Positions 3,976 through 47,331 of a DNA stretch of 64,000 nucleotides are shown one piece after another. The notes below the pieces were generated by a model. That model saw only the letters and a program-made list of their open reading frames with translations, did no database searches and was not told the origin of the DNA. The number at the start of each line of letters is the position of its first letter. The stretch's first letter is position 1. The DNA is from a virus. The position numbers and the translations under genes were made by a program. Where the stretch lies: positions 64,001 to 128,000 of IMG/VR virus record IMGVR_UViG_3300042923_000524; one strand, given 5' to 3'.

Positions 3976-3978
3976 GTA

Positions 3979-4131
3979 TTACTCCTTTTCTTCAATCTTA
4001 ATTTTCTTCTTTTTTCTATCTATCTTTTTATGCTTACTTTCTAATTCAAATTGTTTTATAACCCTAGAATCAACATCAAAACTTTCTAAAGCTTCATTTA
4101 ATTCATCTAAATAATCATCATAATTATTCAT
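3979..4131 (-). CDS. Small hypothetical protein (50 aa)
   Basis: Read manually: MNNYDDYLDELNEALESFDVDSRVIKQF...EEKE, with AGGA RBS; contiguous with its neighbours. Confidence 0.5.
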   Translation of the reverse strand: MNNYDDYLDELNEALESFDVDSRVIKQFELESKHKKIDRKKKKIKIEEKE

Positions 4132-4149
4132 TCTATTTTATTTATCATC

Positions 4150-4690
4150 CTTTTTAATCTATTTTTATATCTGGATAAATCAATACAGATGCTCACCCAT
4201 TAGCAAGTAAGCATCTGTATTTTAGAGGGAGTATTATGAAAAATATATGTATAAGGCAAACTGTTAAATCTTCCACTTATCGGGTAGGAACTCTCCCCTG
4301 TTAGGTTGGGTTTTGAGAGGGTGTCAAAAGCCTCCACACCCTCTCTTGGATTCTACATGTAGAAAAATTAGTGCTTTGTTGATTACATAGTAACCAAACT
4401 CTAAATTAGTCTAAAAAGCGTGGTTTCTAAAACTTTGGTAATTTCCACATATCCAAAGTAAAACTTAACCCCGATTTGCTATCTAAGTGGTTTTAGAATC
4501 GCAGTTTTGTATATCTTATCACTGCGACGAATGATAAGTGTTGACAGTATCACCGACAGCGAATTGTCCATAAATTAAATATTCTGTGGTAAATTGTAAC
4601 AGTCTTATTAATTGTCTCATATTTAAACTCTCCGACACGGAGAACTAGAGGACTGTAACCCTAGTATGTATTATCTATGATGCCCTTTGG
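4150..4690 (-). ncRNA. Candidate structured non-coding RNA / leader (series of hairpins)
   Basis: About 540 nt without an ORF, richer in GC than its flanks, with several inverted repeats (e.g. ATACAGATGCT..AGCATCTGTAT, GAGAGGGTGT..ACACCCTCTC, CTTATCA..TGATAAG). Confidence 0.3.
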
Positions 4691-4696
4691 CTAGTA

Positions 4697-4876
4697 TTAG
4701 TCTGTTATTTCTTCGCCATATGTAATGGCTATTTTAACATTCTTAGAATTAAAATCTTTTAGCAATTCTTTTAATTCCTTAGTTCCAATTTCTTCTACAT
4801 CCATTGTCATATCTTCTATATCCAAAATTCCCTCAATAGTCTTACTAAACTTTTCTTGTATTTTTGATTTTGCCAT
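4697..4876 (-). CDS. YonK-like small protein (59 aa)
   Basis: Read manually: MAKSKIQEKFSKTIEGILDIEDMTMDVEEIGTKELKELLKDFNSKNVKIAITYGEEITD. Resembles SPbeta YonK (GxxDxxxM...LxxFNxKNVxI) and lies next to the YonJ-like gene. Confidence 0.6.
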   Translation of the reverse strand: MAKSKIQEKFSKTIEGILDIEDMTMDVEEIGTKELKELLKDFNSKNVKIAITYGEEITD

Positions 4877-4910
4877 CCTTTTATTCCTCCATTAATTTTA
4901 TATTAATTAT

Positions 4911-6956: not shown

Positions 6957-9581
6957 TTATACAGAATTTTTCTTTTTATTGTAATATTCTTTCTGTTTTT
7001 CTCTATTGTATTTTTTCCATTCTTCTTTGCTACAATCTGGACAGTATTTTTTATTTGATGTTGTTTGCTGAATTCTTTCACCGCATTTTTCGCAAGATAT
7101 AGAATCATTAGCAATATTATTTTTTATATTTTCAAGTATTGTATCTCCAAAACATTCCCATAAAGTAGTTTTATAGTTGCTTTGTTTGTGTTTATATAAA
7201 TATTCAACTAGAACATCTACTACATAATTTACATTATCATTTATTTCTAATATTTCTTTTTTTATATCTTGATAGATATATGGTATGTTATTTGTTTCAT
7301 CATCGTCTTCAGAGCAATTAATCATAAAGTGTTTTTTTAAATCCATCTCTTGATATTTATCAATAATGCTATTATCCAACTTAACTCTTTTGTTTTTCAT
7401 TAGTACTTTATAATCAAATTTTCCTAAACCTATAGAATTAAAATTAATTTTGGGATTAGGTATGATTTTCTCTAGTTTGTTTACAACACTATGATTAATC
7501 TTTTCCACTTCTTCTTTCTTCTTGTCTTTGGCATATATAAAGAAGTGTGGCACTTTTGATTTAGTATAATCCGTAATTAGTTTTTTCTTATTCTTTGGTC
7601 TTTCTGGTTTATATAATGTCTTAGCAAAATCTATCGTAAAGTTATTTTCCATACATAATAACTTAATTACATCAATGTCTATGTTCTCACTATTCCATAT
7701 TTTAGTTATGTCGTTGCTAATCATACCAATGTTTCCACCTGTATAAGCAGACTTTAATCCATTATAAATAGTTTGATTGTCAATCTTTTCTGCTGGTGCT
7801 TTTCTCATATTATAATATAAAGGCACTATATCTTTCATATTGCGTTCAGATGCCTCTATAATCGTTTTTTCTGCACACACTAGGCTCTTATCCCCATCGT
7901 TATCAAATTGTAGAATCTTGGAAATTAAATCATGACAACTGGTGTATATAGCATCTGTAGTAAACCATTCACTCTTTTGCTTATCAACTATATTTCTTCT
8001 TACTGCATGCTCACGGAACAAATGAGGTGAACGCAAACAGTCAAGTTTATCTATATTCTTATATATTTTACAGAATACTTCTCCGTCTTCTAATAGACCT
8101 TTTGGATTCTTATCACCTAAAAACAAATATTCACAGAAAGCATATAAATCAGGAGATAGGAATGTGTATACTCCATTTATATCTACTTTTCCAGCTCTGC
8201 CATCTCTAACAATACTCTTTTTTACTTGTTTTAATATTTCTTTACTATATGTGTCATTCAATAATTCTGGATATATCTCTAATGCTTGTTGAATGTAATT
8301 CTTATTTTTATTAGAAGGCACAACGCCTAACACTTTTAACATTGTCTTTTTATCCGAACCAATACTTTTAATATTATGGATAGTTGTTTTAGAAATAGTC
8401 GCTAATTCTTTATCTGTCATATCTGTGAGAGTCTGAAGCATCTGATAGTTAATTTTTGCATTGTTAAAAGTATCTTCTTCCTCATTACATTTACCTGCTT
8501 GACAATTATATTTAATAAATTTATCTATGTAATCTTGCCATGAAGAGTAATATTTGTACATCTTAAATTGACTCTTAGTAAATATTACTTCTATACCATC
8601 TTTTAAAATATCCCATTCTTTTCCGTATATATCAGTAACTTTACTATAATCTTTTCCTTCAGTGTTTTTATTAGCTTCATTAATAAATTTATCAAAAGGA
8701 AAAGACATTAGAAGTCCCTTAATCCAAGGTAATCTCACCATCATGTTTTTCTTTGATTTGCTAGTTAAATACATTCCACAGCCGTCTGTGTGCGTTACAG
8801 GTATATCCATTTGCTTTCTTGTAATCTCATATGTAGTATCATCAATAAAATCAACAACGCCATTAACCATTGTTTCCATATCATCAACTACAATAGACTT
8901 AGTTATATCAAAATCTTCCCATATGTCAGTTGCAGAATTACAAAGAGCTAGATATGCCAAGAATTTATTAATATTAACTCCACCATTATCATTTATATCT
9001 TCAATTGTTAATCCACACATTAAAGTATTTTTATATTTATTGAATATAGATTCTTTTATAAATACTGTTTTCTTTGTTCTTATTTGTCCTGCTGAAGCTG
9101 TAAGACAAATATATTTTTCTCCATTGTGCATATATCCATCTAGTATTATATCTTCAATTACATCAAAGAAATAAGTTTGAACAATCATTATATCTTCATA
9201 TAATTGGTTTTGCTCCATATTTGCAGTTCTAGTTAATACGGAATCAAATACAGATATAATTCTATGTTTATTTAGACAATCTTTATTAAGATTTCTAATT
9301 CCTTTGTGTTTTTCAAACTCAATATATAACTTTTCCTTAGTATGTTTAATTTCTTTATTGGTTTTTTCTAGTAGTAGTTTAATTTTATCATTATGATTTG
9401 ATGCAATCATTTCTCTAATATGCTCTGGTATTAGTTTAAATTTGAATTTATCTCTTTTCTTTACTAATTTCTTGCGATACATATATAAACTATTGAGTCT
9501 TTTATGTATTTTCATTTCATTATCATTATAGAAACATGACGTATCCACTGAATATATATGTATTTGTTTTTTTAAGCTAAT
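6957..9581 (-). CDS. yonO: YonO-like single-subunit (double-psi beta-barrel) phage RNA polymerase
   Basis: SAGQIRTKK, TDGCG, RLPWIKG, RSPHL and catalytic LQFDNDGDK (DxDGD). The ORF extends 11 codons upstream of the called GTG to an ATT at 9581 placed 7 nt after AGGAGG. Confidence 0.9.
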   Translation of the reverse strand: MSLKKQIHIYSVDTSCFYNDNEMKIHKRLNSLYMYRKKLVKKRDKFKFKLIPEHIREMIASNHNDKIKLLLEKTNKEIKHTKEKLYIEFEKHKGIRNLNKDCLNKHRIISVFDSVLTRTANMEQNQLYEDIMIVQTYFFDVIEDIILDGYMHNGEKYICLTASAGQIRTKKTVFIKESIFNKYKNTLMCGLTIEDINDNGGVNINKFLAYLALCNSATDIWEDFDITKSIVVDDMETMVNGVVDFIDDTTYEITRKQMDIPVTHTDGCGMYLTSKSKKNMMVRLPWIKGLLMSFPFDKFINEANKNTEGKDYSKVTDIYGKEWDILKDGIEVIFTKSQFKMYKYYSSWQDYIDKFIKYNCQAGKCNEEEDTFNNAKINYQMLQTLTDMTDKELATISKTTIHNIKSIGSDKKTMLKVLGVVPSNKNKNYIQQALEIYPELLNDTYSKEILKQVKKSIVRDGRAGKVDINGVYTFLSPDLYAFCEYLFLGDKNPKGLLEDGEVFCKIYKNIDKLDCLRSPHLFREHAVRRNIVDKQKSEWFTTDAIYTSCHDLISKILQFDNDGDKSLVCAEKTIIEASERNMKDIVPLYYNMRKAPAEKIDNQTIYNGLKSAYTGGNIGMISNDITKIWNSENIDIDVIKLLCMENNFTIDFAKTLYKPERPKNKKKLITDYTKSKVPHFFIYAKDKKKEEVEKINHSVVNKLEKIIPNPKINFNSIGLGKFDYKVLMKNKRVKLDNSIIDKYQEMDLKKHFMINCSEDDDETNNIPYIYQDIKKEILEINDNVNYVVDVLVEYLYKHKQSNYKTTLWECFGDTILENIKNNIANDSISCEKCGERIQQTTSNKKYCPDCSKEEWKKYNREKQKEYYNKKKNSV

Positions 9582-12875: not shown

Positions 12876-13805
12876 ATGTATGCTAGTATTGATTTAGGTA
12901 CAACAAGAATAAAAGACCATCTAGGTAATTGTTATGCGTCTGGAATATCAGAGAGAGTTTACGACATGGCAAATTATGTTATGACACTAGAAGGTAAAAA
13001 ATATACAATGGAATTATTTCATGAGAAAGCAATATACGATGTAAATAGTAATAAAGCTTTAAATACTAATGCTAGATTAAACTACTTATATGCTTTACAC
13101 AAAATTACTAATGGTGATATGGGTATATATAAAGATGTTGTTGTACCCCTACCAGCAAAACAATATGAAAATGAAGAATCTGTAGCAATGTATAAGAAAC
13201 TTCTTACATTAGATAATTCAATAATGGTTGATGTAAATGGAAATACAAAAGAAATATATGTTGATAGTGTAGGAATTGTACCAGAGGATTTTCCAGCTTA
13301 CTATACAGAAGAAATAAATACTGAACGTTTTGGAAATGCAAAAACTCTATTAATTGGAATTGGTGGATTTAATTCAAATCAATACCTAATAAAGAATGGG
13401 GATATAATAAAATCTGACTCAGACGAACAGGGTTGTTTACAGTTATTTAGTGACATTGCAAGCATTATAAACAGTAAATATAATTCTAATATAAGTCTTG
13501 AAGAAGTGTATAGTACTTTAACTAAAGGATTATTTTACAAAGGTGAATATATTGATATTTTACCAATTGCTAAAGAACCTATAATGGAATATTGTAAGAA
13601 ATTTTATAATAAACTCAAACTTAAATTTTCTGTAGATACCGTGCCTTTTGTTCCTTGCGTGGGAGGCGGTAGCATATTTTTAACAGAATATTTACGTGAA
13701 TATATCCCCCACTTAGAGTTAATTAAAAATGCACAGAATGTTGCTGCTAAAGGTATGAGATATATGTTAGGTGTAGATGAATTACAGGATGTGGTTAATT
13801 TATGA
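12876..13805 (+). CDS. ParM/StbA actin-like partition ATPase
   Basis: SIDLGTTRIK phosphate-1 loop, VVVPLP, IGIGGFNS (phosphate-2), CVGGGS, NAQNVAAKG. Confidence 0.8.
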   Translation: MYASIDLGTTRIKDHLGNCYASGISERVYDMANYVMTLEGKKYTMELFHEKAIYDVNSNKALNTNARLNYLYALHKITNGDMGIYKDVVVPLPAKQYENEESVAMYKKLLTLDNSIMVDVNGNTKEIYVDSVGIVPEDFPAYYTEEINTERFGNAKTLLIGIGGFNSNQYLIKNGDIIKSDSDEQGCLQLFSDIASIINSKYNSNISLEEVYSTLTKGLFYKGEYIDILPIAKEPIMEYCKKFYNKLKLKFSVDTVPFVPCVGGGSIFLTEYLREYIPHLELIKNAQNVAAKGMRYMLGVDELQDVVNL

Positions 13806-14363: not shown

Positions 14364-15752
14364 ATGGCAAACCCATTAGCAAAAACAAATTTGAAATCTA
14401 AATTAACTAAAGAGGATATTCTAAATCAGAAAAAATATATAAAAGCAAAAAACGAATTCAAAGAAAAATTCTACAGATTAATGTTTGAGTTAGGTTTGTA
14501 CAATAAATTCAATAAAACTTATTTCTTACAGATAATGAATGAAACTAATTATGGATTTTATGCTCAGTTGTATCTTGTAGATGGTCTTTCGTTTAAACAA
14601 CTTCAACAAAAAATAGGTGAATTACAGGAGGGATTATGTTGTATTTGGATAATGCAGACTAAACAATTTGAGAATTATGCTTCAGTAAAGATAGTTACTC
14701 AACCTTTAGATGAAAACTTACCATTTGAAAATCCAAAGATTAAACCACATCAAATGTATCTAGGTATGAGTTTTTCAATGAAACCTATAATCATAGACGT
14801 TGTGTTAAACTGCATGATGCTCTGTGGAGGTGCTACAAACAAAGGAAAAACTAGATGGATATATTGTGTATTACTTAGTTGGATTTTAGGATGTAAACCT
14901 TCAGAAGTTGAATTATATATTTCAGATATTGCAAAGGATGAATACGTACTATTTAAGAATGTTAAACATGTTAAGTGTTATGCCAATGAATTGGAACAAT
15001 TATACAATATGGTACATGAATTAAAACGTAAGTTTGAAGAAAGAAAAGTATTAATTAGTAAATATAGAGAGACAGGTGAAGCGACTAATATATGGGAATA
15101 CAATCTAATTAGTAAAAACAAATTATCATATGTTTATTATGTTATAGATGAATTATCAGTGTTAATGCCTGATAAAACTGACAGTGAAGATGAAAAAGAC
15201 ATGAAAGGCGAAATACTAGCTATTTCAAAAATGCTAGAAAAGACCGCTAGAGCATTAGGTATATATGTATTATGTGCGACACAAAAAACTACTAAAGAAG
15301 AAATGCCAAGTATTATTAAAAATATGTCAGCCGTAAGAGTAAGTTTCGGAGCGAATGATGCAGTATCTTCAGAAGTTATTATGGGAGACTCCAGTGCAGT
15401 AGGGTTGCAACAGAGATATGCTGTCTACTCTTTAAATGGCGGTGAGAAGAAAGATTATTTGTTTAGTCCTTACCTAACCACAGATATGTTAAAAATGTTA
15501 CTAGAGCCGTATAAAACAAATAAAACAGAATTAAACAAACCTAATCCAATAAAAGAAATACCAACTATTGAAACTCTAGATTTACCGAAACAAATGATTC
15601 CTTATAATCAAAATTCAAATTATACACTTCAGCCTATTATATGGAAATTAGATGCAAAGTTTAGACCATATAAAAAGCAGGATGTGGAAATTGTAGAAAT
15701 GCCTAAACCACTATTTCATAATAATGGAGATGATGATTGCATTGATTACTGA
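14364..15752 (+). CDS. FtsK/SpoIIIE-family ATPase
   Basis: Walker A GGATNKGKT, Walker B YYVIDE, ARALGIYVLCATQ, VRVSFG. Confidence 0.85.
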   Translation: MANPLAKTNLKSKLTKEDILNQKKYIKAKNEFKEKFYRLMFELGLYNKFNKTYFLQIMNETNYGFYAQLYLVDGLSFKQLQQKIGELQEGLCCIWIMQTKQFENYASVKIVTQPLDENLPFENPKIKPHQMYLGMSFSMKPIIIDVVLNCMMLCGGATNKGKTRWIYCVLLSWILGCKPSEVELYISDIAKDEYVLFKNVKHVKCYANELEQLYNMVHELKRKFEERKVLISKYRETGEATNIWEYNLISKNKLSYVYYVIDELSVLMPDKTDSEDEKDMKGEILAISKMLEKTARALGIYVLCATQKTTKEEMPSIIKNMSAVRVSFGANDAVSSEVIMGDSSAVGLQQRYAVYSLNGGEKKDYLFSPYLTTDMLKMLLEPYKTNKTELNKPNPIKEIPTIETLDLPKQMIPYNQNSNYTLQPIIWKLDAKFRPYKKQDVEIVEMPKPLFHNNGDDDCIDY

Positions 15753-26600: not shown

Positions 26601-29600
26601 CTTGTTGAAGCATCGCAACCAGAGCTTGAAAAAGCAGAAAATGAAATAAAAATACTTGAAGAGTCAAAGAAACCTCAATTTGAAGTATTAAAAAACTTTG
26701 TAGAGCAATGGAAAACTGAAGCTATAAATTATTATTTAGAACTTCTTAAAAATGGCTATGATGGCAAAGACGATTATATAATAGACTTATTACAAAGAGG
26801 AGAAAAATATATAATAAATCTTTACACAATAGAAGCTAAAGCAAGGCTAGTAAATATGATAACATTGATAAAAGAAAAGACTGGCGAAGTAATATCTTGT
26901 AATTTATACGGAAGTGGAAACAATCAAAAGTTTGGTTTTGAGGGAACAGTAACAGGAGAAAAGAAAACAGTAAGAGTCGAAGCAATTTTAGCAGGTGGAT
27001 GGAATATTCAAAAACTACATGTAAGACTATTAATAAATTAAAGAGTTAGAAATAACTCTTTTTTCTTTTAATAAGAATGAATATAAAAATTATATTTGAC
27101 AATACTATTGTTAGCGTGTTAAAATGAGTTATAATCTAAATTTAAGGAGTGAGTATTTTATGAGTATGTATATAATAGAAGTTAACGAAGACGGCGAAAA
27201 TATGCAATATGAGTATGGCAGCAAGGCACATGCTGAAGAGCATTATAATTTTGAAGCACATTGTACAATGTATGAATATATAGATGGTAAACATTATTAC
27301 ATGAAATCTAAGTAAATATGATTATAAAATAGGCTGAATAAAGCCTATTTTTTTTATGTATTGACTTCCTATAAACTCATGTTACAATTAAAGAGAATAC
27401 ATAACACATATAAAATTAATAAAGGAGGAAACGAATTATTGAATGTATTATCATTATTTGATGGAGGCTCATGCGGTCAAGTAGCATTACAGAGGGCAAA
27501 TATAAAAGTAGAAAAATATTATGCTAGTGAAATAAATCCAAATAGCGTAAAAGTAACACAAAAGAATTACCCTAATACAATACAGCTTGGAGATGTAACA
27601 CAACTAAACAAAGAAAAATTATTAAATTTAGGTAAAATTGATTTATTAATTGGTGGTAGTCCCTGCGAAGATTTAACAATAACCGCAATTGATAGAAAAG
27701 ATATTAACAAAGGTTTAGAAGGTAAAAAGTCAAAGTTGTTTTATAATTATGTGGATGCTCTTAATATTATTAAACCTAAATACTTTTTACTTGAAAATGT
27801 TGCAAGTATGACAAAAGAAAATATAGATATAATATCTAGTGAATTAGGAGTAAAACCAATATTAATAAATAGTAATTTAGTATCGGCTCAGGATAGGGAA
27901 AGACTTTACTGGACTAATATTACAGGTATTGCACAGCCAAAAAATAAAGAAATTTTATTAAAACACGTCTTGCAGCGAGATGTAGAAGAAAAATTTTACT
28001 ACAATAAACCCTTTGAATTTTATGGATTAGATAAAAAAGTATGTGCGAAATTGTTAGTAAATTCTCATGATTTAGTTAAAAGAGTTTATAATCCAGATTT
28101 TAAATGTGCAACATTAACAGCTGTACAAGGTGGATATCAAGAGAAAAAAGTTTATATAAATAGTAGAGTTAGAAAATTAACACCAATAGAATATGAAAGA
28201 CTTCAGACTTTACCAGATAATTATACATATGGAGTTAGCAATACAGCACGCTATAGTATTTGTGGAGATGGTTGGACAGTTGATATAATAGCACATATTT
28301 TTAAAAATATATAATGACTTATATAAAATTATCAATAGTTATTGACATATAAAACGTTGTAGTATAATATAATATATAAGATACTACATAAAAAAGGAGT
28401 GAAGTCATGAAGATATATTATACATTAAACTCCGAAGAACTTGGAGAAGAAGCAAAGAAAGAAACATTAATAAATATTTATAATGAATGGCTGAGATATA
28501 AGAAAGATGATAAAGAAACGGGAGACAAGAAGACATATTATTTTATTAAACATGAAATAGAAAACAATGTTGATAATACAACAGAAGGAAAAGTTTATAA
28601 AAGAGGTAATCAAATTTATTTTAAATCAATATAATATTAAGGAGTTGTTATAATTGGCTATTATGACAGATAAAGAATTACAAAATATAGCAAGTGATTT
28701 ATTTCGTAAATATTGGAATATGGATTTAACTATTTCTGTTTCGGTTAATCCTAAAATGTATAAATGGTCTGCAAGATGTTACCCTATGACAGTTGGGAAA
28801 CATTAATAAATAGAGGATATAAGAAAAGAATTTAGCAGTTTATTAATTGCAGCCGAAAGGCTGTTTTTAATTTCACGACAAAACACTTCTTTCATGGTCA
28901 TTACTGGAGCAGATTATTTTTAAAAATCATGTATCAACTTTAAACTAAAAGCATATAATAAATTAACCAAATACAAATATAAAACTTTTAAAATATTTGT
29001 TGACAGAAATTTCTAGCATATGTTATAATGAATTATCGAATAAATTATAGAAGGTGAAATCATGAAACAATATAGAACATCATATAAAAAAGTTAATGAC
29101 TTATGCAACTTATTAGAGTATAGACTTGTAAAACATGAATGGTTAGGGAAAACAGATTATTTTTATAATTACTCTCTTGTAAAAGATGAAAACGGACGTT
29201 ATAAAGAAACAATTCTAAAAACAACTAGCTTGAAAAATGTTTATGAATGGTTATTAGAAAATGGAATCAATTATAATAATGGCATAAAATATTAAATCTC
29301 GACTATGCGAGTATAAACAGACTTTAAGCATAGAGCGTTAACAGGTTTAACAGCCTGTTAGGTAGTAATAAATAATAAATTAATAGGAGTGATTTATCAA
29401 TGCCAAGTAAAACAGTAAGAGAAACGGAATATAATAAAACAATCCAATATAAAGACGGACAAATGACATATTGTATCAACTATAGAAAAGAATTTCATAA
29501 ATCATTTATAAATGGTTTTAGATGGGTAGAATGTTAATTCAATAAAATCCAAATTTGGTCATCATGTAAAAATTTAGGAGGTGCGTATAATGTGTAGAAT

Positions 29601-32600
29601 CTGTGGAGCAGAAACAAAAGAAACTATTTGTAAAGAGTGTCAAAAAGAATTAATCAAAGAAAACTATAACAAAACTTTTATTAAAATATCAAAATAAAAA
29701 TATAAAATTATAGGAGAGTGTAAAAATGAGCAATTACAATTTAAATAGCAAACAAGTAGCCTTAATTATACAATCCCTTTTAAATGATGCCTGTTTTTAT
29801 GAATGTGATAATAAAGAATATGAAAAGACAGTTAAAAAAGAAGGGCACGAACTAATTAACTTTTTATTAGAACAACACAATAAACAAGAATCAGAAACAT
29901 TAAAACACTATAATAATTATGTTGAAGGAGTGAATTAAAAATGAAAGATTTATTTGAAAAATTAGAATATGCAAAAAAGGCGGTATTAAGAACATTAGAA
30001 AAAGAAAGTTGTTCAGTTGATTTTCATGGTTTATCATATTGGGCAAATGAAGTAGAGCGTTTACGCAATGAAATTAAAAAGATATTATAATATTAAGAGA
30101 AGCCTGTAAAAAGGCTTTTTCTTTTATCTAATATCCAGACCAAATAGATGTTTTATTGTCATATAATGTCGATAAGTTTTATAATAATTAATATAAAATT
30201 GAGCAAAATAATGTTGACAGATTAAAAACACGTATGTTATAATTAGTTATACCAATTAATTAGAAATTCAATAATAACAAATAACAAATAACAAATATAA
30301 AATATAAGGAGTGGAAATTATGAAAAAAACATTATATTTTGAAGGTGCAGGATGGTCGGGAGCAGATATAAGCCAAAGAACAATAGGAAATTGCAGAATA
30401 AGAACAGGATTCACAAACAACGAAGGAAGAAAAATCTATTTAGAAATTACTGGTTATGAAAAATCAGCCAATGATAAAAAGATTGACAGATATTCAGAAT
30501 ATCAAGTTGGAGAAGCAATTGGATTTGTAGATTATTGTTTTTATATTGATACAGAATCAAAAGACCCTTGCAACGAATGCAGAATAAAAGACATAGAACA
30601 TAATGCAAAATTTGCTTATACAAAAGAAGGTATAACAGAGTTTATTAATAAAAATCTGAAGTGCAGCTTTGAAACTATCGAAGTATTGCCAGATTTAGGA
30701 GGTTACAGAGTACACGGAGATAACAAAACATATAGCATGATGGAAGACTACAATCATAATTCAGAACTAATTAAGACAAGAGAAGAAGTTTACAATCATT
30801 TTTACGGACTTGAAAAATCAGAAGGTAAACAATATCCAAACTTCTCTTTATGGGTAGATGATAAAGACATTCACTTATTACACTTGTTAAGACATTTTAA
30901 TGGTTATAATAAGCATTGGTCAATTCATACCGATATAGAAAACTGGAAAGAAACAATAACAGAAACCAAGTTGGGAAAATATGCCTGTTAGTTAATTATT
31001 TACTGTTAGAGTACACTATAACAAATATAAAACTATAGTGTACTCCATAGAGTAAATAAAACTCTAAAAAATATAATAACAGGAGCGTGTTTATATATGA
31101 TAAAAACATTTAAGAAAGAATTAAATAGCCACGATTACAATGAAATAAGAATAATTAATTTAGAATCTGGAGAATTTACACACTATTTTCAGGATAAAAA
31201 TATAGGCTTTATATTTTCAGATTATACAACAACAGTATTTGAAATGGGCTATAAATCAGTTAAAGAATGCATTAAAGAACTAAGAAGCCGAGGTTTATTA
31301 GGTCAAGAAGTTGATTACAAAGAACAAAAAGAATCTGAAAGAATCGGTTATATTAAATTAGGCGTAGAGCGCATTAAAAGAGCAGGAAGAGTAAATACAA
31401 ATGATTTTGAAGATGTAATAACAAAGCTATCAAAATATGGTATGGGATTCTGTGATGCTCAAAATGTAATAACAGAAACATATTTATATCAAGCATAGCA
31501 ACAGGTCACAGCCTGTATAAATAGTGCTTTAAGCTGTGAGCGTGTCAAGGTATAACAGCCTTGACGATAGCAAAATAAAGGTTTAGGAGGTCGTTAAACA
31601 TGAGTTATAATAAGGCTATGAAGCATTCAAACAATCATAGAAAAGATAAATACTATCAACCAGTTTTAGGTATGCCCTTTGAAGGTTTAAAAGAAGGAGA
31701 GCATATAGAAAGCTATCAAAGTATAGCAGAAAGAACAGCAGAATCATATCATGTTAAAGCTTTTAACGAAATAAATAATACATGGGAAAGAATGTCTAAG
31801 GATTTTTTAACAGAATCAGAAGCGATTGACGAAAGTTTTATATTTGACGAAAAGGGTTATAGAACTAGAATATATAGTGATAAAGATATGAGAGTTGCAG
31901 GATGGTAAAAACACTATAACAGCCGAGGTATTTTAAACCATGAAGTTTTAAAAAGTTACTATAACAGTCGACACAAAATAGTTGACGAAGTTTTCTTATA
32001 ACAGAAAGCACTTTTTACTTCATGGATTTTAACTATAACAGCAAGTTTAAAATGGTTGACCGACTTTTGTAAATAATATATAAAAGATTGGTATAAAAGT
32101 TACTAAGACTTGACACAATATAACTAAATACAAATATAAAATTTATTTTAAAAAAGCATTGACAAAACTTTTCTATGTATGGTAAAATAAGTATAACAGG
32201 TAAACGAAAAATAAATATATTGGAGGGTTTGAATATGGAATTAACTAAACAAGAAATACAATCAAGGATTGAGAAAATAAGCAAACTTAAAGAAACTGAA
32301 CAAGATATTCAAAAATTAAAAATCATCAATCAAGCAGTAAAAGATTTAAGTAGTTTATTATAAAAAGCCAATCAAAGACGTATTCAGTTGAAATTTAAAA
32401 TATGAAAGGTGGAAATAAAATGAATTATATTTTTGAAAGTATCAAAAGAGAATTAGGAGAAGATTCAATTGGTTGGAGAGAAATATCAAAATTATTAGAT
32501 GCTCAACCTAAAAAAGAAGAAGTTGGTTTTAAAACAGAATTTAAAGGTGAATGCTATATAATTCAAGATGCAACAGGAAACTTTGTTTATGGCGAATGTG

Positions 32601-35600
32601 AAGGTGAAGGAATGGATTTTGAACAGGCACAAAAGTTTAATGATTTTAATGGAGCTTTAAGATTTGTAAATCACAATGAAGAATACGACAGTGACCATTG
32701 GAAAATATTTAAAGTAAAGATTGATTATGAAATATTAGTATAACAGCATCCCTTCCCTGTCTGATGAGAGCTTGATAGTAACAAGCCGAATCCTGCTATA
32801 ACAGAGCAGGAAACAGGAAACTGAAATAAATATTTAGGAGTGAAATATAAATGGAAAAGAACATGATAGAAATTAATAAAACAACTCGTATATCAATTGA
32901 CGATGATGGTATAATATCAATTCATCAATTAGATTGGAAAGGTAAAGACTATACAACTATTCATCTTAGCAAAGAGGCATTAAAGCAAATTACAGAGATA
33001 GTTGAAAAGGTATAACAGTAAAATCCAGACAAAACAGTAGTTTTATCAAAATATAAATTGAAAGGATGGAATAAAATGAATGATACAAAATTAGAAAATA
33101 TGATATTAACAACTAAACTATGTTTAGTAGAGGCAGAAACAAAAAGCCAAGATTTTAAAGACGGTGCAATATATATGTCAAAAAGTATTTTTAGTTCGTT
33201 GGGTATACCAGATAATGTTATAGAAAAATTTATAAAAGCATAACAGACAACGAAAGATAGATTTGGTCAAAATAAATAGATGAAAGAAGGAAAGAAAAAT
33301 GAAATTTGCAAAGTATTATAATGTAACAAACAAAATGAACGAAATGATTGAAAAGGGTGATTTATTTTCTTATGAAAAAGGTTTTTACAAAGGATTATAT
33401 ATCTGTAAAGATACTCATGATTTCTGGATTAGTAGAGTATTAGAAGGGTATAACAGCGAGTTTGAGCAAGAAGATGGAAAATGGTTGGTAGAGCGTAATA
33501 AAATAGATAAATATGACTTCTGTGAATTTTTAAAAGAAAAGAAAAATGATGATTCTATAATAACAGATAGACGTACTAGAGATTATTATATAGATGAATG
33601 TTTCCAAGATGAAGTAATAATGGAAACACTAATACTTATGGATGATGATAAAGGTCTTGAAGGATGGGATAACTATGAATGTGATAGTTATGAAGAGGCA
33701 GTTGAAGCCATTGATGGAGGCTACGGAATATTAACGACGTAGATACAATTATATTGTGTTAGGGTGCATTATAACAGAGTGCATCCAATAGAATATAAAT
33801 ATAAAATTAAGGAGGATTTAAAATGAATATAGTAAAAGAATTAGAGCAAATTCTACAACAGCCAAACTTTATGGGCAATGACAAATTAGGTTGTAATCTA
33901 GCAGTAAATCAAATACTAGATAAAATTGAAGAGCTAGGACTTGAAATAGTAGAAAAGAAATAATATAAATATCCCAATAAAATCAACATTCTGAGCCAAT
34001 TTAACGCTCTATAACAGATTGTTATAACAGAAAGGAGTCAATAGACCATGAGAACATTAAAAGAGATTTATCCACCTACAAATGAATTTAATATTATATA
34101 TGCTGAGTTAATCAAAGAGGATAATAATGAAGATTATATAAAAGTTAACATACAGTATCAAGACGAATCCACAGAACAAATTAAACTTTTAATGCATGAT
34201 GATTTATTAGAAGATATCAACAGATTATCAGATTTTGAACTTTGTTATGATATAACAGAAAATGTCTATTGGGACTAGGGAGGTATAACAGCCATGCAAT
34301 CAGCGAACCAGAGACAAACTGATTTTGAAGTACTAAAGACAACTAATATAAAATTAAACTATAACAGAAACCCAAATGAATTCAGCAAAACTATGAATAT
34401 CACAATAACAGCAGCAACATTTATTATGATGGTTTTTCTAGCAATAAAGTTTCTATCATAAAATACATATAACAGTCACAAATACATATAACAGCGAACT
34501 AAGGAGGGGTCACAGTGAATGCAATTAGAATAATAGGTATAGATACATTTGAATACTCACAAAGTAAGATAACAGCCGACATAACAACATACTGGAAAGA
34601 GTTGTATTGGAAGAATAACAGCTATTTGACGAGATACAGAACAGTTTATGAAAACACATTATAAACACAAATATAAAACTATTGACACGGAGTAAACATA
34701 TGTTAAGATTAAATTAATCAGAATAATCCAATATATTTAAGGAGTGAAAGAAATGAAAAAATCAGAATTAAAAACTGGAATGTGGTTAGAAGTAGAACAA
34801 AAATTTACCAATGTTACACTTATAAATATGGGAATGGTTTTATTAGATACTGAAAATGGAGATATAATTGTAGGTGAAACATGGATGCCATTAGATAGTC
34901 TTAATGAAGATTTAGAATATGAAAATTGTCATGTAAAAATAACAAAAATATATCAACCATCAAACAATATAGATTACCTTAGAAAAGAAAGTCCATTTAA
35001 TTTTAAATTTAGAGAAAACGAGTTAGTTTGGGAAAGAAAATAGAATGACAATAAAACAAGAATTTGGCTTGGAAGGGAGAAATAAAAAATGAAACAAACT
35101 TTTGAAGTGATGATAAATGAAAAGAATGGTAAGGTTACTATTGAAAATTTAGGAGAAACAAATTATGCTAATCAATTTATTTATAGGTTTGATAATAACG
35201 ATAGATTTACAGGATTTTACTGTGACGAATCAAAAATACAATCTATGTTTACTAAAATAAAAGAAAGTGAAATTAAAAGTCGTGAAAAGCAAATAAAACA
35301 ACTCCAAAAAGAAATTAAGATATTTGAAAAAGCTAAAATACCAACAATTCAATGAAATAAGAGTTTCAACGAAATAACGAAAGGAGAAGACAAATGACCA
35401 TTCCAGAAAAAGAAATATTAAGAAGCATTAGCTACTATACAAAAGAAATTGCACCTAAATGTGGAACTGAAGATTTTGACGATGATTCTATATATTGTTT
35501 GGGTATACTTACTGGATTGTTTATATCTCTAGGCAAAGGAAAAGAATTCACTGATATGATAAGAGCAGGAGAAGAAAAGTGGGCAAATTATGTGATTAAT

Positions 35601-36445
35601 TTATTAAAGACAGAATTTAAATTAAATGAAACAACTTCAAAATTAAATTAATAAAGGAGAATACTAAAATGAATTTTACATTATACGATGTCACTTTAAC
35701 AAATGGAACAGTTCAAAATACATACAGAAAAAGAGCAATTTGCCAAAGAGAAGCAATAATATTAGCTCAAGCCGATGCAATATTATCTGCAAATGGTTAT
35801 GATTTTGTATCTATAACTGAAATTAAATATTAATAATAAGGAGGTAAATATAAAAATGACATATTGTATAGGAATTAAAATCAATCACTGTATATTTGGC
35901 AGAGGTAAAATCTTAGACCGTGGATTTGAAAAGGATACTTATAAAATTGAATTTGATAAACCAATGGACGGAATTAAAATAAGAAATATCAATAAAGATA
36001 GAATATATTTGTGTTAGAAAAAATAATAAATTATAAAGGAAGGTTAATTATGTGCAAAGCAAAACAATATTCTGAGCAACTATTAAATATATACAAAAGC
36101 ATTGAAGAGGATATAAATACATACGATATTGAATTAAGAAAAACTGAGGGATATTTGCAAGATATTATGCACATTATTGAAAATGAAAACTTCAATGCAT
36201 CTGAAGGATATAAATTATCTAAAATGATTAAAGATGCCAGAATTGAAAGAAGAGATTTAAAGAATGAAATAGAAACACTCAATATTCTAAAGAAAACCTA
36301 TATACAGATGAGTAAAAAGCAACTTAATAAAACAAGTGAAAGTATAAAAGAGAAAGATAAGCAATTGGGTGAGTTAAAGGAAAAGAAAATATATGTTCCA
36401 AGAACTTTGAAGACAACTAATTTAAAATTAGTTGTGTCGAGATAG
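23657..36445 (+). CDS. Array of about 35 small early/accessory hypothetical genes
   Basis: Densely packed 45-230 aa ORFs, each with an AGGAG RBS, all on +. Confidence 0.7.
25857..26060 (+). CDS. Small PnuC-like membrane protein
   Basis: 67 aa, three TM segments, W..G.K....F..G...QVLWI..A.....YGL pattern. Confidence 0.45.
   Translation: MDWILSIVSMVMLWMMGNKNKYAPFIGIIAQVLWIYYAISLKQYGLLVGTIGYLVIHIRNAVKWQKN
27439..28314 (+). CDS. Orphan C5-cytosine DNA methyltransferase
   Basis: LSLFDGGSCG (I), LIGGSPC (IV), LLENV (VI), QDRERLYW (VIII), RKLTPIEYERLQ, GDGW (X). TTG start after AAAGGAGG. Confidence 0.92.
   Translation: MNVLSLFDGGSCGQVALQRANIKVEKYYASEINPNSVKVTQKNYPNTIQLGDVTQLNKEKLLNLGKIDLLIGGSPCEDLTITAIDRKDINKGLEGKKSKLFYNYVDALNIIKPKYFLLENVASMTKENIDIISSELGVKPILINSNLVSAQDRERLYWTNITGIAQPKNKEILLKHVLQRDVEEKFYYNKPFEFYGLDKKVCAKLLVNSHDLVKRVYNPDFKCATLTAVQGGYQEKKVYINSRVRKLTPIEYERLQTLPDNYTYGVSNTARYSICGDGWTVDIIAHIFKNI
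28654..28806 (+). pseudogene. Possible truncated SprT-like N-terminal fragment
   Basis: 50 aa ...LQNIASDLFRKYWNMDLTISVSVNPKM..., stops early and is followed by non-coding DNA. Confidence 0.25.
29298..29366 (+). ncRNA. Pistol self-cleaving ribozyme
   Basis: P1 CTCG/CGAG, loop ACTATG pairing with GCATAGA, TATAAACAG linker, P2 ACT/AGT, TTAA, GCGT, P3 TAACAGG/CCTGTTA, GGT cleavage segment. Same element order as the pistol consensus. Confidence 0.8.
31501..31572 (+). ncRNA. Pistol self-cleaving ribozyme (second copy)
   Basis: P1 ACAGG/CCTGT, loop TCACAG pairing with GCTGTGA, ATAAATAG, P2 TGCT/AGCA, TTAA, GCGT, P3 GTCAAGG/CCTTGAC, GAT at the cleavage segment. Confidence 0.8.
32752..32820 (+). ncRNA. 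Hammerhead-like RNA with a non-canonical core
   Basis: Stem I CCTGT/ACAGG, CTGATGA, stem II G(A)GCTTG/CAAGCC, GAA, stem III TCCTGCT/AGCAGGA. The 15.1-16.1 pair is U-A rather than A-U. Confidence 0.5.
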
Positions 36446-37359: not shown

Positions 37360-38235
37360 ATGAAATCTGAAAACAAATTACTCAACAATTTTCTTCTAGC
37401 TTTAAAATCAAAAGGAAGGTCACAGAACACAATAACATCATATGAGATAGATAACATCCAGTTACTTAATTACATACGAGAGAAAAGGCATATAGAAGCA
37501 TCTATAGATACATTTGATAAAGAGTTTTTTAATTCTGTAGGGTATCAGGATTTAGAATTCTATATGAATTATTTAACGCAAAAAAACAAAGCAGAATCAT
37601 CCAGAGCAAGGAAAGTGTCAAGTATTAAAGAGTTTTTTAAATATATAACAAAGATGAAAGTTATTACAATCAATCCTGCATTGGATTTAGAAGCTCCTTC
37701 AATACCAGAGAGAAATCCTAAATATAAAAACACAGAAGAATGCAAAACAATGCTTCAGAACATAAAAAGCAGAAATAAAGAAAGAGATTTGGCAATCATA
37801 ACATTATTTATCAATCTAGGTTTGCGTGTCTCTGAATTAGTTGGAATTGATTTAGATGATATAAAAGAGAATAAAGTTAGAGTTATCAGAAAAGGTAATG
37901 AAGAAAAGAACATGAGATTAAATGAATATTGTATAGATGCAATCAATAAGTATTTAGAAGTTAGAAAAACAACTGATGAAAAAGCATTATTTATTAGTGA
38001 ACGTGGTACTAGAATTAGCGTTAAAGAAATTAGATATCTAACTTATAAATATGGTAATATTAATCCTCATGCCTTGAGACATAGTTGTTTTACAAACTTA
38101 TTAAGTACAGGAAAGGTTAATATTCGTAAGATACAAGAGTTAGCAAACCATAAAAATATTCAAACTACAGTTCGATATACACATATTACGGAAGATGAAA
38201 TGCAAGAAACTGTTAATGCAAACCCATACTATTAA
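37360..38235 (+). CDS. XerC/D-like tyrosine recombinase
   Basis: SAM-like N-terminus; GLRVSEL (R), HALRH, LANHKNIQTTVRY. Catalytic set appears complete. Confidence 0.92.
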   Translation: MKSENKLLNNFLLALKSKGRSQNTITSYEIDNIQLLNYIREKRHIEASIDTFDKEFFNSVGYQDLEFYMNYLTQKNKAESSRARKVSSIKEFFKYITKMKVITINPALDLEAPSIPERNPKYKNTEECKTMLQNIKSRNKERDLAIITLFINLGLRVSELVGIDLDDIKENKVRVIRKGNEEKNMRLNEYCIDAINKYLEVRKTTDEKALFISERGTRISVKEIRYLTYKYGNINPHALRHSCFTNLLSTGKVNIRKIQELANHKNIQTTVRYTHITEDEMQETVNANPYY

Positions 38236-42967: not shown

Positions 42968-43636
42968 GTGGTAATTGAAATGACAACATGCATTCAAAAC
43001 ATTAATAGTCACACTACATACGATAAACCAATAAACACACTAATCAACGCAGCACAAAAATTATTAGAGGTACGGAAAGGTGATTTGATATTTGTAGACT
43101 TTGACCAACTAATAAAAAGTGGTAGAGACCATAGTATACAATCGAAACCTAGACCAGCGGTAGTTTTAAGCAATAACGTTGGAAACAAGTTTTCACCTAC
43201 TATTTGGGTGGCAACATTAACTTCTAATCTTAACAAAAATAAACTACCAACACATGTAAAAGTATCTGAAGAAACAGGACTTAGATTTGATTCGTTGGTT
43301 TTAGTAGAACAGGTATTCACAATTGACAAAAAACTTATATTATCAAAAGTGGGGAAATGTTCAGCACATATAATGGAGCAAATTGACACAGCAGTTAAAA
43401 TTCAAGCAGGTACAATTGATTTAGAGTATATAGAAGATACAGTTAATTGGATTAATAAAGTAGAGTGCGAAGCTCGAATAAATGGGTTTGACCCAGAGGA
43501 TGCAAGATTACACACTAGACTAGTTAAGGAATTGCAATCTTATTGTAATCAATATGGATATGATTATACTAAGGTATTAAAAGAAAAAACATTTATAAAA
43601 GTCTCCGTGGACAATAGAAAACAAAATGCAATGTAA
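42968..43636 (+). CDS. MazF/PemK endoribonuclease with a C-terminal extension of about 65 aa
   Basis: KGDLIFVDF...SKPRPAVVLSN...PTIWVATLTS...PTHV...DSLVLVEQVFTIDK. Catalytic Arg/Thr positions are kept and no upstream antitoxin gene is seen. Confidence 0.85.
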   Translation: MVIEMTTCIQNINSHTTYDKPINTLINAAQKLLEVRKGDLIFVDFDQLIKSGRDHSIQSKPRPAVVLSNNVGNKFSPTIWVATLTSNLNKNKLPTHVKVSEETGLRFDSLVLVEQVFTIDKKLILSKVGKCSAHIMEQIDTAVKIQAGTIDLEYIEDTVNWINKVECEARINGFDPEDARLHTRLVKELQSYCNQYGYDYTKVLKEKTFIKVSVDNRKQNAM

Positions 43637-45025: not shown

Positions 45026-46336
45026 ATGAAAATAGGAAAAGATAGAGATTTACTAGAGAAAGAATTAGCAAAAATATTCGTAAAGTATAATTTAGATAAT
45101 AATGTAATCAATAAAATTAAAGAAGAATTTATATCAAGAGGGGTATCTTCAGGAGAATTCTTGTCTATTATAGATGGCAAAATTCAGATTGAAACAATCC
45201 CTCTTAATATGCTTTGTCTTTTAACAGAGTTGTTTTATAAAGAAACTACAGAGCAAAATATAAAACCAGAAACTTATTTTACTGAACAAGAAATTAACAC
45301 AGCTAAGAATTTTAGACGAGAGTCAGAAGAACAATCTAAATATCCATTAGTATTTGAAAATGTCATGAAGATTGGTGATGACCACTATGTAACATATAAA
45401 ACAGCTCAAGAAGTTGCTGGTTACTATGCAAAGAATTTAATTGTTTATAACAAACAAACTCAAAGAAATGCAAAGTACAGTGAGTATCAAGATAAAATTG
45501 TTGAAATGATAAGTATAAATAAATCTTCTATTTCTGATATTGCAAAAGATATTGTTGAGGGCAGACAAATTACAAACTTTATCACTTTTAATATTCTTCA
45601 AAATGGCGAAGAGAATTTTGAATATGATGCTAAAAATAAAACTTTAACTGTATTTGAAGGTGAGATTGATATACTTGACGGTTTTCATAGGTCAATGGGA
45701 ATTCTCTCAGCAGTACAGAAAGAGCCTAATGTAAAATATATCACTGGAATTAATATAGTGAATTGGGATATTGAAAAATCAAGAAGATTTATTGTACAGG
45801 AAGATAAGAGAAATAAGATTAATGCTTCTCATGTAAAATCACTTAATCCAGATAGATATGAAAACATGATTATTAAAAAACTAAATGAGAGTAGTTCAAG
45901 TGATTTAAAAGGCAAAATTACTACAGATAATTTATTTATAAGAAAACATAAAGCTTTAACAACATATGATGTTATTAATAATACTATTCAAAAAGAATAT
46001 AAAGACATTAAAACCAATAGAGATGCTTCTTTAATTGCTGAATGGTTAATTGAATTCTTTAATGAATTAATTGGTTTGTATCCAACTGAGTTTTTAACTG
46101 AAATTGAATCTACTAAGGAAACTTCATTTATTAACAATGAGAATATGTTCGCAGGTTATATTTCACTTTCAAAAGAATTACAGAATGTTAGCAATTGGAG
46201 ACAAAAACTACAGGAAGTGATGAGTAAAATTGATTTTAGCGTTAATAATTCTAAGTGGGAAAGTCTTAAATCTGCAACAGAATTAAACAAGAGATTATTA
46301 AAGAATATATCTAATTATTTTAGAGAGATTGTTTAG
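45026..46336 (+). CDS. DndB/DGQHR-domain protein, SPbeta YopQ (SroE)-like
   Basis: NKQTQR, NFITFNI, DILDGFHR motif, FIVQED; precedes an integrase-fold gene as yopQ precedes yopR. Confidence 0.65.
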   Translation: MKIGKDRDLLEKELAKIFVKYNLDNNVINKIKEEFISRGVSSGEFLSIIDGKIQIETIPLNMLCLLTELFYKETTEQNIKPETYFTEQEINTAKNFRRESEEQSKYPLVFENVMKIGDDHYVTYKTAQEVAGYYAKNLIVYNKQTQRNAKYSEYQDKIVEMISINKSSISDIAKDIVEGRQITNFITFNILQNGEENFEYDAKNKTLTVFEGEIDILDGFHRSMGILSAVQKEPNVKYITGINIVNWDIEKSRRFIVQEDKRNKINASHVKSLNPDRYENMIIKKLNESSSSDLKGKITTDNLFIRKHKALTTYDVINNTIQKEYKDIKTNRDASLIAEWLIEFFNELIGLYPTEFLTEIESTKETSFINNENMFAGYISLSKELQNVSNWRQKLQEVMSKIDFSVNNSKWESLKSATELNKRLLKNISNYFREIV

Positions 46337-46365
46337 TTAAAAAATTAAGAAAGGTGTGAATATAA

Positions 46366-47331
46366 TTGAAACATTTTATTATGTATAATCCAGAATTAAA
46401 AAATGTTTATCTTAATACTATTGACAACGAAGGAACTAGAGAAAATATTGGATATACTTTTCAAAAGGCTAGAATACTAGAAGATGAAAAAGGAAAAGAT
46501 ATATGTCATTTTAATTTTGATGAATTAGGTGAATTATGGAGTAGCTTCAGAGCAAAAAGTTTTGCTGCCATTACTACTAAAGTTAGTATTATAGTTAAGT
46601 ATATTGACTTTTGTATTGATAAAGGATTGGCTGATGTAAACTACAATTGGGCAAAGATGTACTTTAATGAAGATGGATTAAGACCATATGTAAGCAAAGT
46701 TGCTATAGGTAATAAAATAATTGACAAAGAAACTTTAGAAGATATAATTGATTTTTGTGCTAACGCTCAAGATGCTGTAATCTTTGCATTATTATTTGAA
46801 GGTGTAAAGGGTAGACCAATACAAGAAAATGCCTTTGAAGAAGTTAGGAATCTTAGAATGGTTGATTGTAATACTGATACTAATGATATTATACTAAGAC
46901 AAGATGATGGTAAAACAAGAGTTATTCAAATATCTGAAAGAACTATGAATTTAATAGTAGATGCTTATAATCAACAAACGTATTTAAGAAAAAATGGCGA
47001 ATCAACCGCAAAACTTAAAGAGATAGAAATGATTGATACAGGTTATGTTTTAAAATTAGGTGATATAGGCAAGAATTCCAATTCGAGTGAAGATAGAATA
47101 AGTCATCAAGTTTTATTTAGAAGACTAAAGAATATTGCAAAAGCATATGGAAATAGTTTTTTAACACCTACTAATATTTACATGAGTGGAATGGTTGACT
47201 ATGCTCAAAGACTGCAAACTGAAAAAGGTGTAGAATTAGACAATAATGATTATATTCATATATGTGAGAAATATGGAATAGACCCTAAAAGATGGTATAA
47301 GATAAAAGTGGAGATTAAGCAGTATCTATAA
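46366..47331 (+). CDS. Integrase-fold protein lacking catalytic motifs, SPbeta YopR/MrpR master-repressor-like
   Basis: DAVIFALLFEGVKG...EEVRNLRMVD; LTPTNIYMSG replaces HxLRH. Confidence 0.65.
   Translation: MKHFIMYNPELKNVYLNTIDNEGTRENIGYTFQKARILEDEKGKDICHFNFDELGELWSSFRAKSFAAITTKVSIIVKYIDFCIDKGLADVNYNWAKMYFNEDGLRPYVSKVAIGNKIIDKETLEDIIDFCANAQDAVIFALLFEGVKGRPIQENAFEEVRNLRMVDCNTDTNDIILRQDDGKTRVIQISERTMNLIVDAYNQQTYLRKNGESTAKLKEIEMIDTGYVLKLGDIGKNSNSSEDRISHQVLFRRLKNIAKAYGNSFLTPTNIYMSGMVDYAQRLQTEKGVELDNNDYIHICEKYGIDPKRWYKIKVEIKQYL

Follow-up and report, generated by a model that had tools for sequence, protein, structure and literature searches.

A dense, sense-strand array of a short word in one operon of an SPbeta-like phage: possible target sites for a sequence-specific endoribonuclease

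Background

A short word that recurs along a single strand of a single operon raises a plain question: what reads it, and in which nucleic acid? We address this question for a cluster of the word TATAACAG in the phage genome IMG/VR record IMGVR_UViG_3300042923_000524, a single contig of 137,947 bp with 27.8% G+C. The stretch under study, hereafter "the window", spans 64,000 nucleotides (nt) and corresponds to positions 64001-128000 of the record; all coordinates below refer to the window unless a related contig is named. An earlier note on this DNA had drawn attention to 19 exact plus-strand copies of the word, described them as often displayed in hairpin loops, and suggested either a centromere- or parS-like loading zone for a phage DNA-binding protein or an RNA box for an antitermination or localisation factor.

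The phage is SPbeta-like, and its YonO polymerase open reading frame (ORF; 6957-9548, minus strand) is 52% identical to SPbeta YonO and 62% identical to the counterpart in Clostridium phage D-1873. Tentatively, and with less than even confidence, we read the cluster as an RNA-level target array for a sequence-specific endoribonuclease, for which a MazF encoded by the phage itself would be the best candidate.

The word and its distribution

All 19 copies are present on the plus strand at the positions first reported (30631-34494), and none lies on the minus strand of the array. A first-order Markov model predicts 0.30 copies in the 4.4-kb unit that holds them (P ~7e-28), in agreement with the early estimate of well under one, and shuffling of the whole window gives 5.1 +/- 2.4 copies for both strands together. 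Over the entire genome we count 20 plus-strand and 4 minus-strand copies, with 19 of the 20 plus-strand copies inside the same 3.9 kb. The impression that there were none outside the cluster was therefore mistaken: three more lie in the window (39114, plus; 5906 and 53804, minus), and the genome-wide total is 24. The tight clustering itself is borne out by a positional scan of all 6- to 9-mers, in which TATAACAG and its sub-words are the most spatially clustered k-mers of the genome.

The word that matters is (T>A)ATAACAG. Within the unit, ATAACAG is preceded by T 19 times, by A 6 times, and by C and G once each (27 in total), and single changes at the remaining positions are essentially absent. 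NATAACAG occurs 27 times at 30631-34622, within the 4.4-kb unit, versus twice in 88.7 kb of other same-sense non-late DNA, and all 27 copies of ATAACAG are on the plus strand (27/0). The density is about 6 sites per kb (5-6 per kb), with irregular spacing of 13-920 nt across 3.9 kb. The flanks add no information, and no partner motif, flanking or distal, was found within +/-45 nt. In RNA the word reads (U/A)AUAACAG with the core UAACAG (RNA forms UAUAACAG, AAUAACAG and UUUAACAG); a literature search for it returned nothing but primer noise. The array comprises:

30631..34494, plus strand: the 19 exact copies of TATAACAG that make up the reported cluster
30631..34622, plus strand: the full array of 27 (T/A/G/C)ATAACAG, with 8 variants at 30955, 31075, 31468, 33239, 33559, 34404, 34568 and 34614

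The array occupies two adjacent host-type transcription units with 12 small genes, for none of which a family match was found. Each of the 12 cistrons carries at least one ATAACAG, in its 5' untranslated region (UTR) or in its coding sequence. Among the 19 copies of TATAACAG, 13 are intergenic (spacers make up 25% of the unit; P 9.5e-5), 2 provide the TAA of a stop codon and 4 are coding, in differing frames. Among all 27 copies of ATAACAG, 10 lie in coding sequence, 3 on stop codons and one 2 nt ahead of an AUG; copies are also found between the ribosome-binding site and the AUG and in 5' UTRs. The occurrence of the word inside ORFs, remarked upon earlier, thus extends to all frames. The distance from a copy to the next start codon ranges from -1 to >1000 nt and has no mode, a placement that fits selection for site density and not for a fixed regulatory position. 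Because copies fall in all three frames, on stop codons and in spacers, and because the word is kept in relatives (below), the array is a selected, polar nucleic-acid signal and no by-product of coding.

Conservation in related phages

Relatives were found through homologues of g1, the first gene of the unit (30320-30991), and through a scan of viral contigs for three nearby copies of the word. The latter yielded G001 (130 kb, 78% complete), G002 and G005 (a 36% fragment), all incomplete records, and otherwise mostly tandem or coding repeats in giant-virus bins. At least 8 independent related contigs show a 5-30 fold excess of the core TAACAG, usually as ATAACAG, on their sense strand, and the word is on the coding strand in each of the 11 loci examined. 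Against an expectation of 0.7-2.9 ATAACAG per locus, the sense/antisense counts are as follows:

The window: 27/0
L136/L152: 13/0
L141: 11/0
L142: 15/0
L148: 25/0
L154-156: 9/2
G001: 26/1
G002: 23/1
G005: 14/0
L219: 11/1
L216: 8/1

The 26 gene-strand copies of G001 lie within 9.6 kb, and L148 has 37 plus-strand and no minus-strand TAACAG within 11 kb. The core TAACAG is invariant, and the pair of bases before it differs between lineages, being TA or AA in this phage and G001 and AT or GT in L154-156. Of the copies in relatives, 57% are coding, with xTA ACA Gxx as the prevailing frame, and 43% fall in spacers or on stop codons.

G001, at ~70% nucleotide identity, permits a comparison site by site. 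Six of 13 copies are held in place, one more keeps TAACAG, and the others are lost or fall in alignment gaps; motif columns are 83% identical versus 67% for the other aligned columns. Some copies have been gained or lost while density is retained. Selection thus preserves density and, in part, position. The four copies at 31915-32041 do have the 45/37/37 nt spacing pointed out in the earlier note and its inverted repeat CCATGAAGT/ACTTCATGG; the relatives keep the sense-strand word, and conservation of the repeat does not extend to the closest of them.

This phage and G001 share the spacer array, g4, g11-g12, the recombinase (72% nucleotide identity) and MazF (88% amino acid identity). G001, G002 and L219/G261 are SPbeta-like, with yopQ-like genes. 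A full-length flagellin gene of G001 (L170 15133-15999, minus strand; Flagellin_N 4e-49, Flagellin_C 8e-33) lies ~1.5 kb from the upstream end of its array.

The closest g1 homologues in IMG/VR and GTDB (57-59% amino acid identity) come from contigs that have almost none of the small genes in common with this phage. These closest g1 relatives (L121-L134) carry no array and no alternative polar word; the excess of TAAACAG in L121 and of AGAACAG in L130 was considered as such a word and set aside, being mostly coding. SPbeta has no TAACAG array either (18 plus, 17 minus). Upstream of the g1 homologue by 5-7 kb, L130 (5584-5636), L133 (3129-3304) and L121 (5064-5076) have perfect DnaA boxes (TTATCCACA, 2-5 copies on one strand), which may be an origin or a DnaA-titrating site; the window contains no DnaA-box cluster.

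Genomic setting of the array

The features of the array unit and of the region downstream are listed below.

30097..30243, plus strand: upstream limit of the array, a terminator-like hairpin (30097-30120) followed by two consensus sigma-A-type promoters
30156..30185 and 30214..30243 (12/12 match, with TG), plus strand: these sigma-A-type promoters
30320..30991, plus strand: g1, first gene of the unit, a conserved 223-amino-acid protein and the anchor for finding relatives
31501..31572, plus strand: pistol ribozyme (59.9 bits), with the word as its P3 loop
31915..32041, plus strand: intergenic 4-copy array, spacing 45/37/37 nt; 3 of the 4 copies positionally conserved in G001, where the spacing is 45/45
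32159..32188, plus strand: internal sigma-A-type promoter TTGACA-18-TAAAAT with TG, conserved in G001, followed by a copy of the word at 32192
32756..32818, plus strand: hammerhead-shaped three-way junction (CUGAUGAG ... CGAA; z -2.1), with AUAACAG as the stem III loop
33762..33786, plus strand: hairpin with the word in its loop (z -3.2)
34682..34709, plus strand: next sigma-A-type promoter, 60 nt downstream of the array end
37360..38235, plus strand: Xer-like tyrosine recombinase with retained R-K-H-R-H-Y catalytic residues; in four lineages the array ends ahead of it
42968..43636, plus strand: long MazF (PemK_toxin domain and conserved C-terminal extension), candidate reader of the word
45026..47331, plus strand: beyond the array, the lysis-lysogeny module with its yopQ-like and mrpR-like (repressor) genes

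In the window, the limits of the array match those of transcription units, with the terminator and promoters at 30097-30243 on one side and the next promoter at 34682 on the other. Four lineages have the array upstream of the gene for the Xer-like recombinase and in the same orientation, and its density collapses at that gene: ATAACAG counts in the 8 kb upstream and downstream of the recombinase are 27/1 in the window, 25/1 in G001, 8/1 in L219 and 7/2 in L154. After the recombinase come the long MazF (in the window, G001 and L219) and then the yopQ-like and mrpR-like genes, and the module order in clostridial SPbeta-like phages is recombinase, MazF, secreted peptide, yopQ, mrpR.

The MazF of the window (222 amino acids) matches PemK_toxin at 8.9e-25 and is 88% identical to that of G001 and 36% identical to that of L219, both array-bearing. 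Of the 5 long records with an array, 3 encode, downstream of it, a MazF with the conserved C-terminal extension. The extended proteins (window 42968-43636; L275 10001-10654; L219 10973-11494) form a subfamily with a ~70-amino-acid extension of the form ID..Y...DT..I.K....YC..Y..DY.K.L, for which the databases hold only 8 clusters. Further MazF homologues are P0003 (76%), P0006 (64%) and P0007 (62%). No gene next to the extended MazF was recognised as an antitoxin.

Outside the array the word is avoided. On the sense strand of the non-late regions, 2 copies of ATAACAG are found versus 9.5 (order-3 model) to 14.8 (order-2 model) expected, which ranks it 29-50 among ~4,500 7-mers, in the most depleted 1%. 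The late-gene block shows no depletion (9 copies versus 7-8 expected), and the antisense strands are near expectation.

The claim of hairpin-loop display stands for three true cases, namely the pistol P3 loop at 31551, stem III at 32797 and the hairpin at 33762-33786, and fails as a general property. A cmscan alignment confirms the P3 loop, with TTTAACAG in the other pistol, as had been noted. The fold at 32756-32818 is hammerhead-shaped with the word in its stem III loop, as described earlier, and has no match to an Rfam hammerhead model at E<=1; it may be either divergent or inactive, and its 3' part, with the ribosome-binding site that follows, is 88% conserved in G001. Over all 19 copies, the mean predicted unpaired probability per 8-mer is 0.17 for the word and 0.17 for matched control 8-mers. 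We accordingly rejected hairpin display as a rule: since predicted accessibility equals that of the controls, loops are places where the word is tolerated. Only 3-5 of the 19 copies are in loops at all, and the flanking stems are not conserved, on which grounds a boxB/nut-type RNA box was discarded.

A proposed RNA reading of the array

We now turn to the question of the reader. The sense-strand polarity in every lineage and the limits matching transcription units favour the broad class of RNA boxes named in the earlier note; the specific idea of a boxB-like antitermination element on a hairpin is not supported, loop display being no general property, and 27 copies in 4.4 kb are far above the use that such systems make of their boxes.

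In the proposal that we rank first, the array is a lineage-conserved signal that would be read on the sense strand; it fills the mRNAs of an operon of accessory genes situated just ahead of the lysis-lysogeny module. The word would serve as both the recognition and the cleavage site of a sequence-specific endoribonuclease, most plausibly the phage's own long MazF; in phages without a MazF of their own, a MazF-type enzyme of the host could serve. Upon release of the enzyme, all cistrons of the operon would be cut together and the early and lysogeny transcripts that avoid the word would be spared, so that one gene set might be shut off selectively at the lysis-lysogeny switch. We place this RNase target array first because the phage has its own MazF in an arbitrium-like locus and because one operon is saturated with a strict word that its other early transcripts avoid. 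To our knowledge, no MazF has so far been described with a ~4-kb array of ~6 sites per kb restricted to a single operon.

The sequences show the enrichment, polarity, conservation and limits of the array, the avoidance of the word elsewhere and the synteny with MazF. From their arrangement we infer three further points: the word is read in RNA and not in DNA, a nuclease does the reading, and MazF is this nuclease. The full scenario, in which the long MazF has a 7-8-nt specificity for (U/A)AUAACAG, ~27 sites were written into one early operon and purged from the other early and lysogeny transcripts, and a peptide-signal-gated RNase could erase that gene set, strikes us as doubtful when taken as a whole.

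The evidence divides between the two nucleic acids. Sense placement in every independent lineage, limits bounded by promoters and operons, copies around ribosome-binding sites, avoidance elsewhere and the syntenic MazF speak for a reader of RNA or one coupled to transcription. Several findings weigh on the other side. In G005, five TAACAG are antisense to a primase-helicase gene block beside the array (L172; 0.59 expected, P 4e-4), which fits a DNA-strand signal better, unless there is convergent read-through. A weak terminator-like hairpin precedes copies 31997 and 32034 and the next promoters follow them, so that these two may be poorly transcribed; their spacer is nevertheless the best conserved part of the array. 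MazF requires single-stranded RNA, yet the copies are predicted to be no more accessible than controls. The likeness to the Chi clusters of phages LLS and MD8, discussed below, also speaks for DNA. As the non-late genes are all on the plus strand, the depletion can equally be described as one of the plus DNA strand. Finally, a MazF was not found with every array: there is no PemK/MazF hit in the examined parts of G005 and of G002, where the recombinase is followed by a yopQ-like gene with no MazF between, and in L154 the recombinase is followed by an mrpR-like gene, again with no MazF between.

Alternative readers

The DNA-level explanation is that the word is a polar signal for a DNA motor, either a Chi-like octamer that would restrain the host's AddAB/RecBCD as it enters at a DNA end, or a KOPS/SRS/TRS-like word that would load an FtsK/SpoIIIE-type translocase and steer it to the recombination site of the neighbouring Xer-like enzyme; we regard it as improbable, without being far-fetched. 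A strict 7-8-mer that is dense, in one orientation, independent of coding and stable in density while its positions turn over is what either system would look like, and in G005 the DNA strand that bears the copies goes on carrying them where gene orientation reverses. On the other hand, a motor signal needs neither the sense strand in all lineages nor the promoter bounding seen here.

For Chi there is phage precedent, with 20 of 23 sites in the active orientation near one end of lambdoid LLS and counts of 32 and 0 in Pseudomonas MD8 (PMC12315714). Set against this, TATAACAG is neither skewed nor over-represented (17 plus, 19 minus) in 400 kb of one complete Clostridia genome (G135), which need not be that of the host, and the ratio of TATAACAG to a control word is 0.2-3.9 across 251 Clostridia genomes. 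The density of 5-6 per kb is several-fold above that of known Chi clusters. In SPbeta the pac site adjoins yonO-yonR (bioRxiv 10.1101/2021.11.22.469490), and by analogy pac would be ~18 kb away from the array. As an aside, the 60-110 kb region of SPbeta (L274) has 27 plus-strand and 2 minus-strand copies of AGCGG, the Chi word of B. subtilis, a skew beyond that of a rough composition estimate (~20 and 8).

A KOPS-like word is favoured by the 5' to 3' direction, which in four lineages points at the gene for the Xer-like recombinase, where the array comes to an end. The phage encodes an FtsK/SpoIIIE-family ATPase (14364-15752), and an FtsK-like gene 24% identical to it lies ~1.5 kb past an Xer-like recombinase in L197 (5355-8311) and L212 (10043-12957), an arrangement that hints at a recombinase-translocase pair. 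However, convergent KOPS would require an opposed array beyond the recombinase, and none is seen (downstream ATAACAG counts 1, 1, 1 and 2). No dif-like 11-6-11 site was found near the recombinase gene, no gamma domain was detected in the window's FtsK_SpoIIIE protein, and no FtsK-family match was found in G001 (78% complete), G002 or G005, all incomplete records.

A sequence-specific protein that binds the RNA or DNA of the operon without cutting it, such as a translational repressor like RegA of T4, an antiterminator, a lysogeny silencer or a "sponge", with g1 or a small operon protein as the possible binder, would account for the same polarity, limits and conservation as the endoribonuclease. 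Copies on or beside ribosome-binding sites and starts (31075, 34023, 34284, 34487) suit such a protein, and the best conserved segment, an evenly spaced intergenic array of 3-4 copies just upstream of tandem promoters, is where a regulator usually sits. We nevertheless think it unlikely, with no known nucleic-acid-binding fold found in g1 or the other proteins of the operon and more than half of the relatives' copies in coding sequence, which is unusual for operators. Concerning g1 in particular, it is the sole protein common to most array-bearing contigs, but as it was the search anchor, this co-occurrence is circular; g1 is also present in the array-less contigs L122, L123 and L130 and missing from G001, G002 and G005. 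An AlphaFold model of g1 (pLDDT 84) has no Foldseek hit at E<=0.001 and a best VIA-align Z of 5.7, and g1 was dropped as a nucleic-acid binder, no known fold being matched.

That the word is a minimal promoter, read by a phage transcription factor or by the YonO polymerase and comparable to the T4 late promoter TATAAATA, seems very unlikely to us. The AT-rich word of 8 bp does resemble a -10 element that lacks a -35 partner, it points the same way as the genes, and the phage encodes a YonO polymerase, whose promoter is still undefined (PMC5467207). But there are 27 copies for 12 genes; they fall within genes, on stop codons and, once, 2 nt ahead of a start codon, with no preferred start distance, and the units already have consensus host promoters. 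YonO, moreover, drives the late operon on the other strand, and no TAACAG was seen in the SPbeta yonN-yonK spacer with the start site. Reading the word as the -10 of a sigma-A promoter was rejected for inconsistent -35 spacing, and a link to tRNA was given up, the phage having only tRNA-Val.

Last, the centromere (parS/parC-like) of a ParM-type partition system, which the earlier note had put forward, would explain short-word direct repeats in a phage with a ParM-like gene (12876-13805), but it is highly improbable, as that gene is 18 kb from the array where parC expects iterons adjoining parM-parR, the copies are not tandem but scattered at irregular intervals (13-920 nt) through 3.9 kb, both inside and outside genes, and in relatives the array tracks the recombinase and lysogeny module with no link to ParM or another partition gene.

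Significance and further observations

SPbeta-family phages choose between lysis and lysogeny by peptide signalling, and an operon-sized array of a strict word beside a phage MazF offers a concrete and cheaply testable idea about this choice. If the endoribonuclease reading is right, a peptide-gated RNase would supply the missing step of arbitrium-type control, namely which transcripts MazF cuts. Should the RNA reading fail, no polar cluster of a DNA word as dense as this one would be known from a phage so far, and the array would give access to a new Chi- or KOPS-like system of Clostridia. On both readings, standard annotation misses a selected signal. The array occurs together with pistol, twister and hammerhead ribozymes; the array unit of the window itself holds a pistol ribozyme and the hammerhead-shaped fold.

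Several other features of the window were recorded. The word ACAAATATAAAA(C/T) recurs beside promoters and gene junctions at 28970, 30290, 31020, 32130 and 34668 (by eye, uncounted). A perfect 11-1-11 palindrome, ACAACTAATTT A AAATTAGTTGT, lies at 36413-36435, at the end of the gene that precedes an HNH endonuclease. A gene-poor stretch of 935 nt (3976-4910, minus strand) separates a beta-CASP RNase gene from a yonJ-like exonuclease gene, and its SPbeta equivalent is a 1.7-kb spacer holding the YonO start site and an unannotated RNA. GATC is missing from the analyzed regions (AGATCA, GATCAA and AAGATC each 0 versus ~37-40 expected), as are CTTAAG and TCTAGA, a pattern that looks like restriction-site avoidance.

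Comparison with known systems

The Chi clusters of LLS and MD8 resemble the array in being octamers far over expectation, nearly one-stranded, clustered and independent of coding (PMC12315714). They differ in that Chi is set by the host RecBCD or AddAB and skewed in the host chromosome, no such skew being present in the sampled Clostridia genome, and in that they lie near the packaging end, from which the array is probably ~18 kb away. The array is also 3-5 times denser and always runs along gene sense. FtsK KOPS, SpoIIIE SRS and the Streptomyces TraB TRS-clt system likewise use 8-bp polar words to load and orient an FtsK-family motor, in chromosomes toward the Xer dif site, and the word described here points at an Xer-like gene in a phage that encodes an FtsK-family ATPase. 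Unlike those systems, the array has no convergent second arm; no dif-like site was found and no gamma domain detected, and the related, incomplete records examined gave no FtsK-family match.

Among RNases, T4 RegB is a phage enzyme that inactivates early messages through a short GGAG word, frequent in their intergenic regions. The RegB word has 4 nt and is at the same time the Shine-Dalgarno sequence, and the enzyme depends on ribosomal protein S1, whereas the word of the array has 7-8 nt, is distinct from the ribosome-binding site and is as frequent inside genes.

The closest parallels are with MazF. B. subtilis MazF has a strict, exact-match 6-nt specificity, UACAUA (cut as U^ACAUA), and rRNA is without UACAUA (bioRxiv 10.64898/2026.08.06.743204). 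The present proposal shares with it a strict short word (6-7 nt) that would be read by exact match in single-stranded sense RNA, and the avoidance of that word in transcripts that must survive, which are rRNA there and the other early transcripts here. The differences are the word itself (UACAUA versus a UAACAG core) and the enzyme, which here is phage-encoded and has a conserved C-terminal extension. Separately, we observed that SPbeta may be enriched in the sites of its host's MazF: in NC_001884 60001-110000 (L274), TACATA occurs 89 times versus 34.7 +/- 5.2 in dinucleotide shuffles, none of which reaches 89, mostly on the sense strand and including 10 copies in yonO-yonP. In the clostridial phage window, TACATA is near expectation (113 versus 93.7 +/- 9.4). 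MazF pushes phi3T toward lysogeny, its targets there not being known (PMC10769878). In SPbeta-family phages such as the arbitrium phages phi3T and SPbeta, MazF is wired into the lysis-lysogeny switch, and here, similarly, the gene sits in an arbitrium-like locus downstream of the array.

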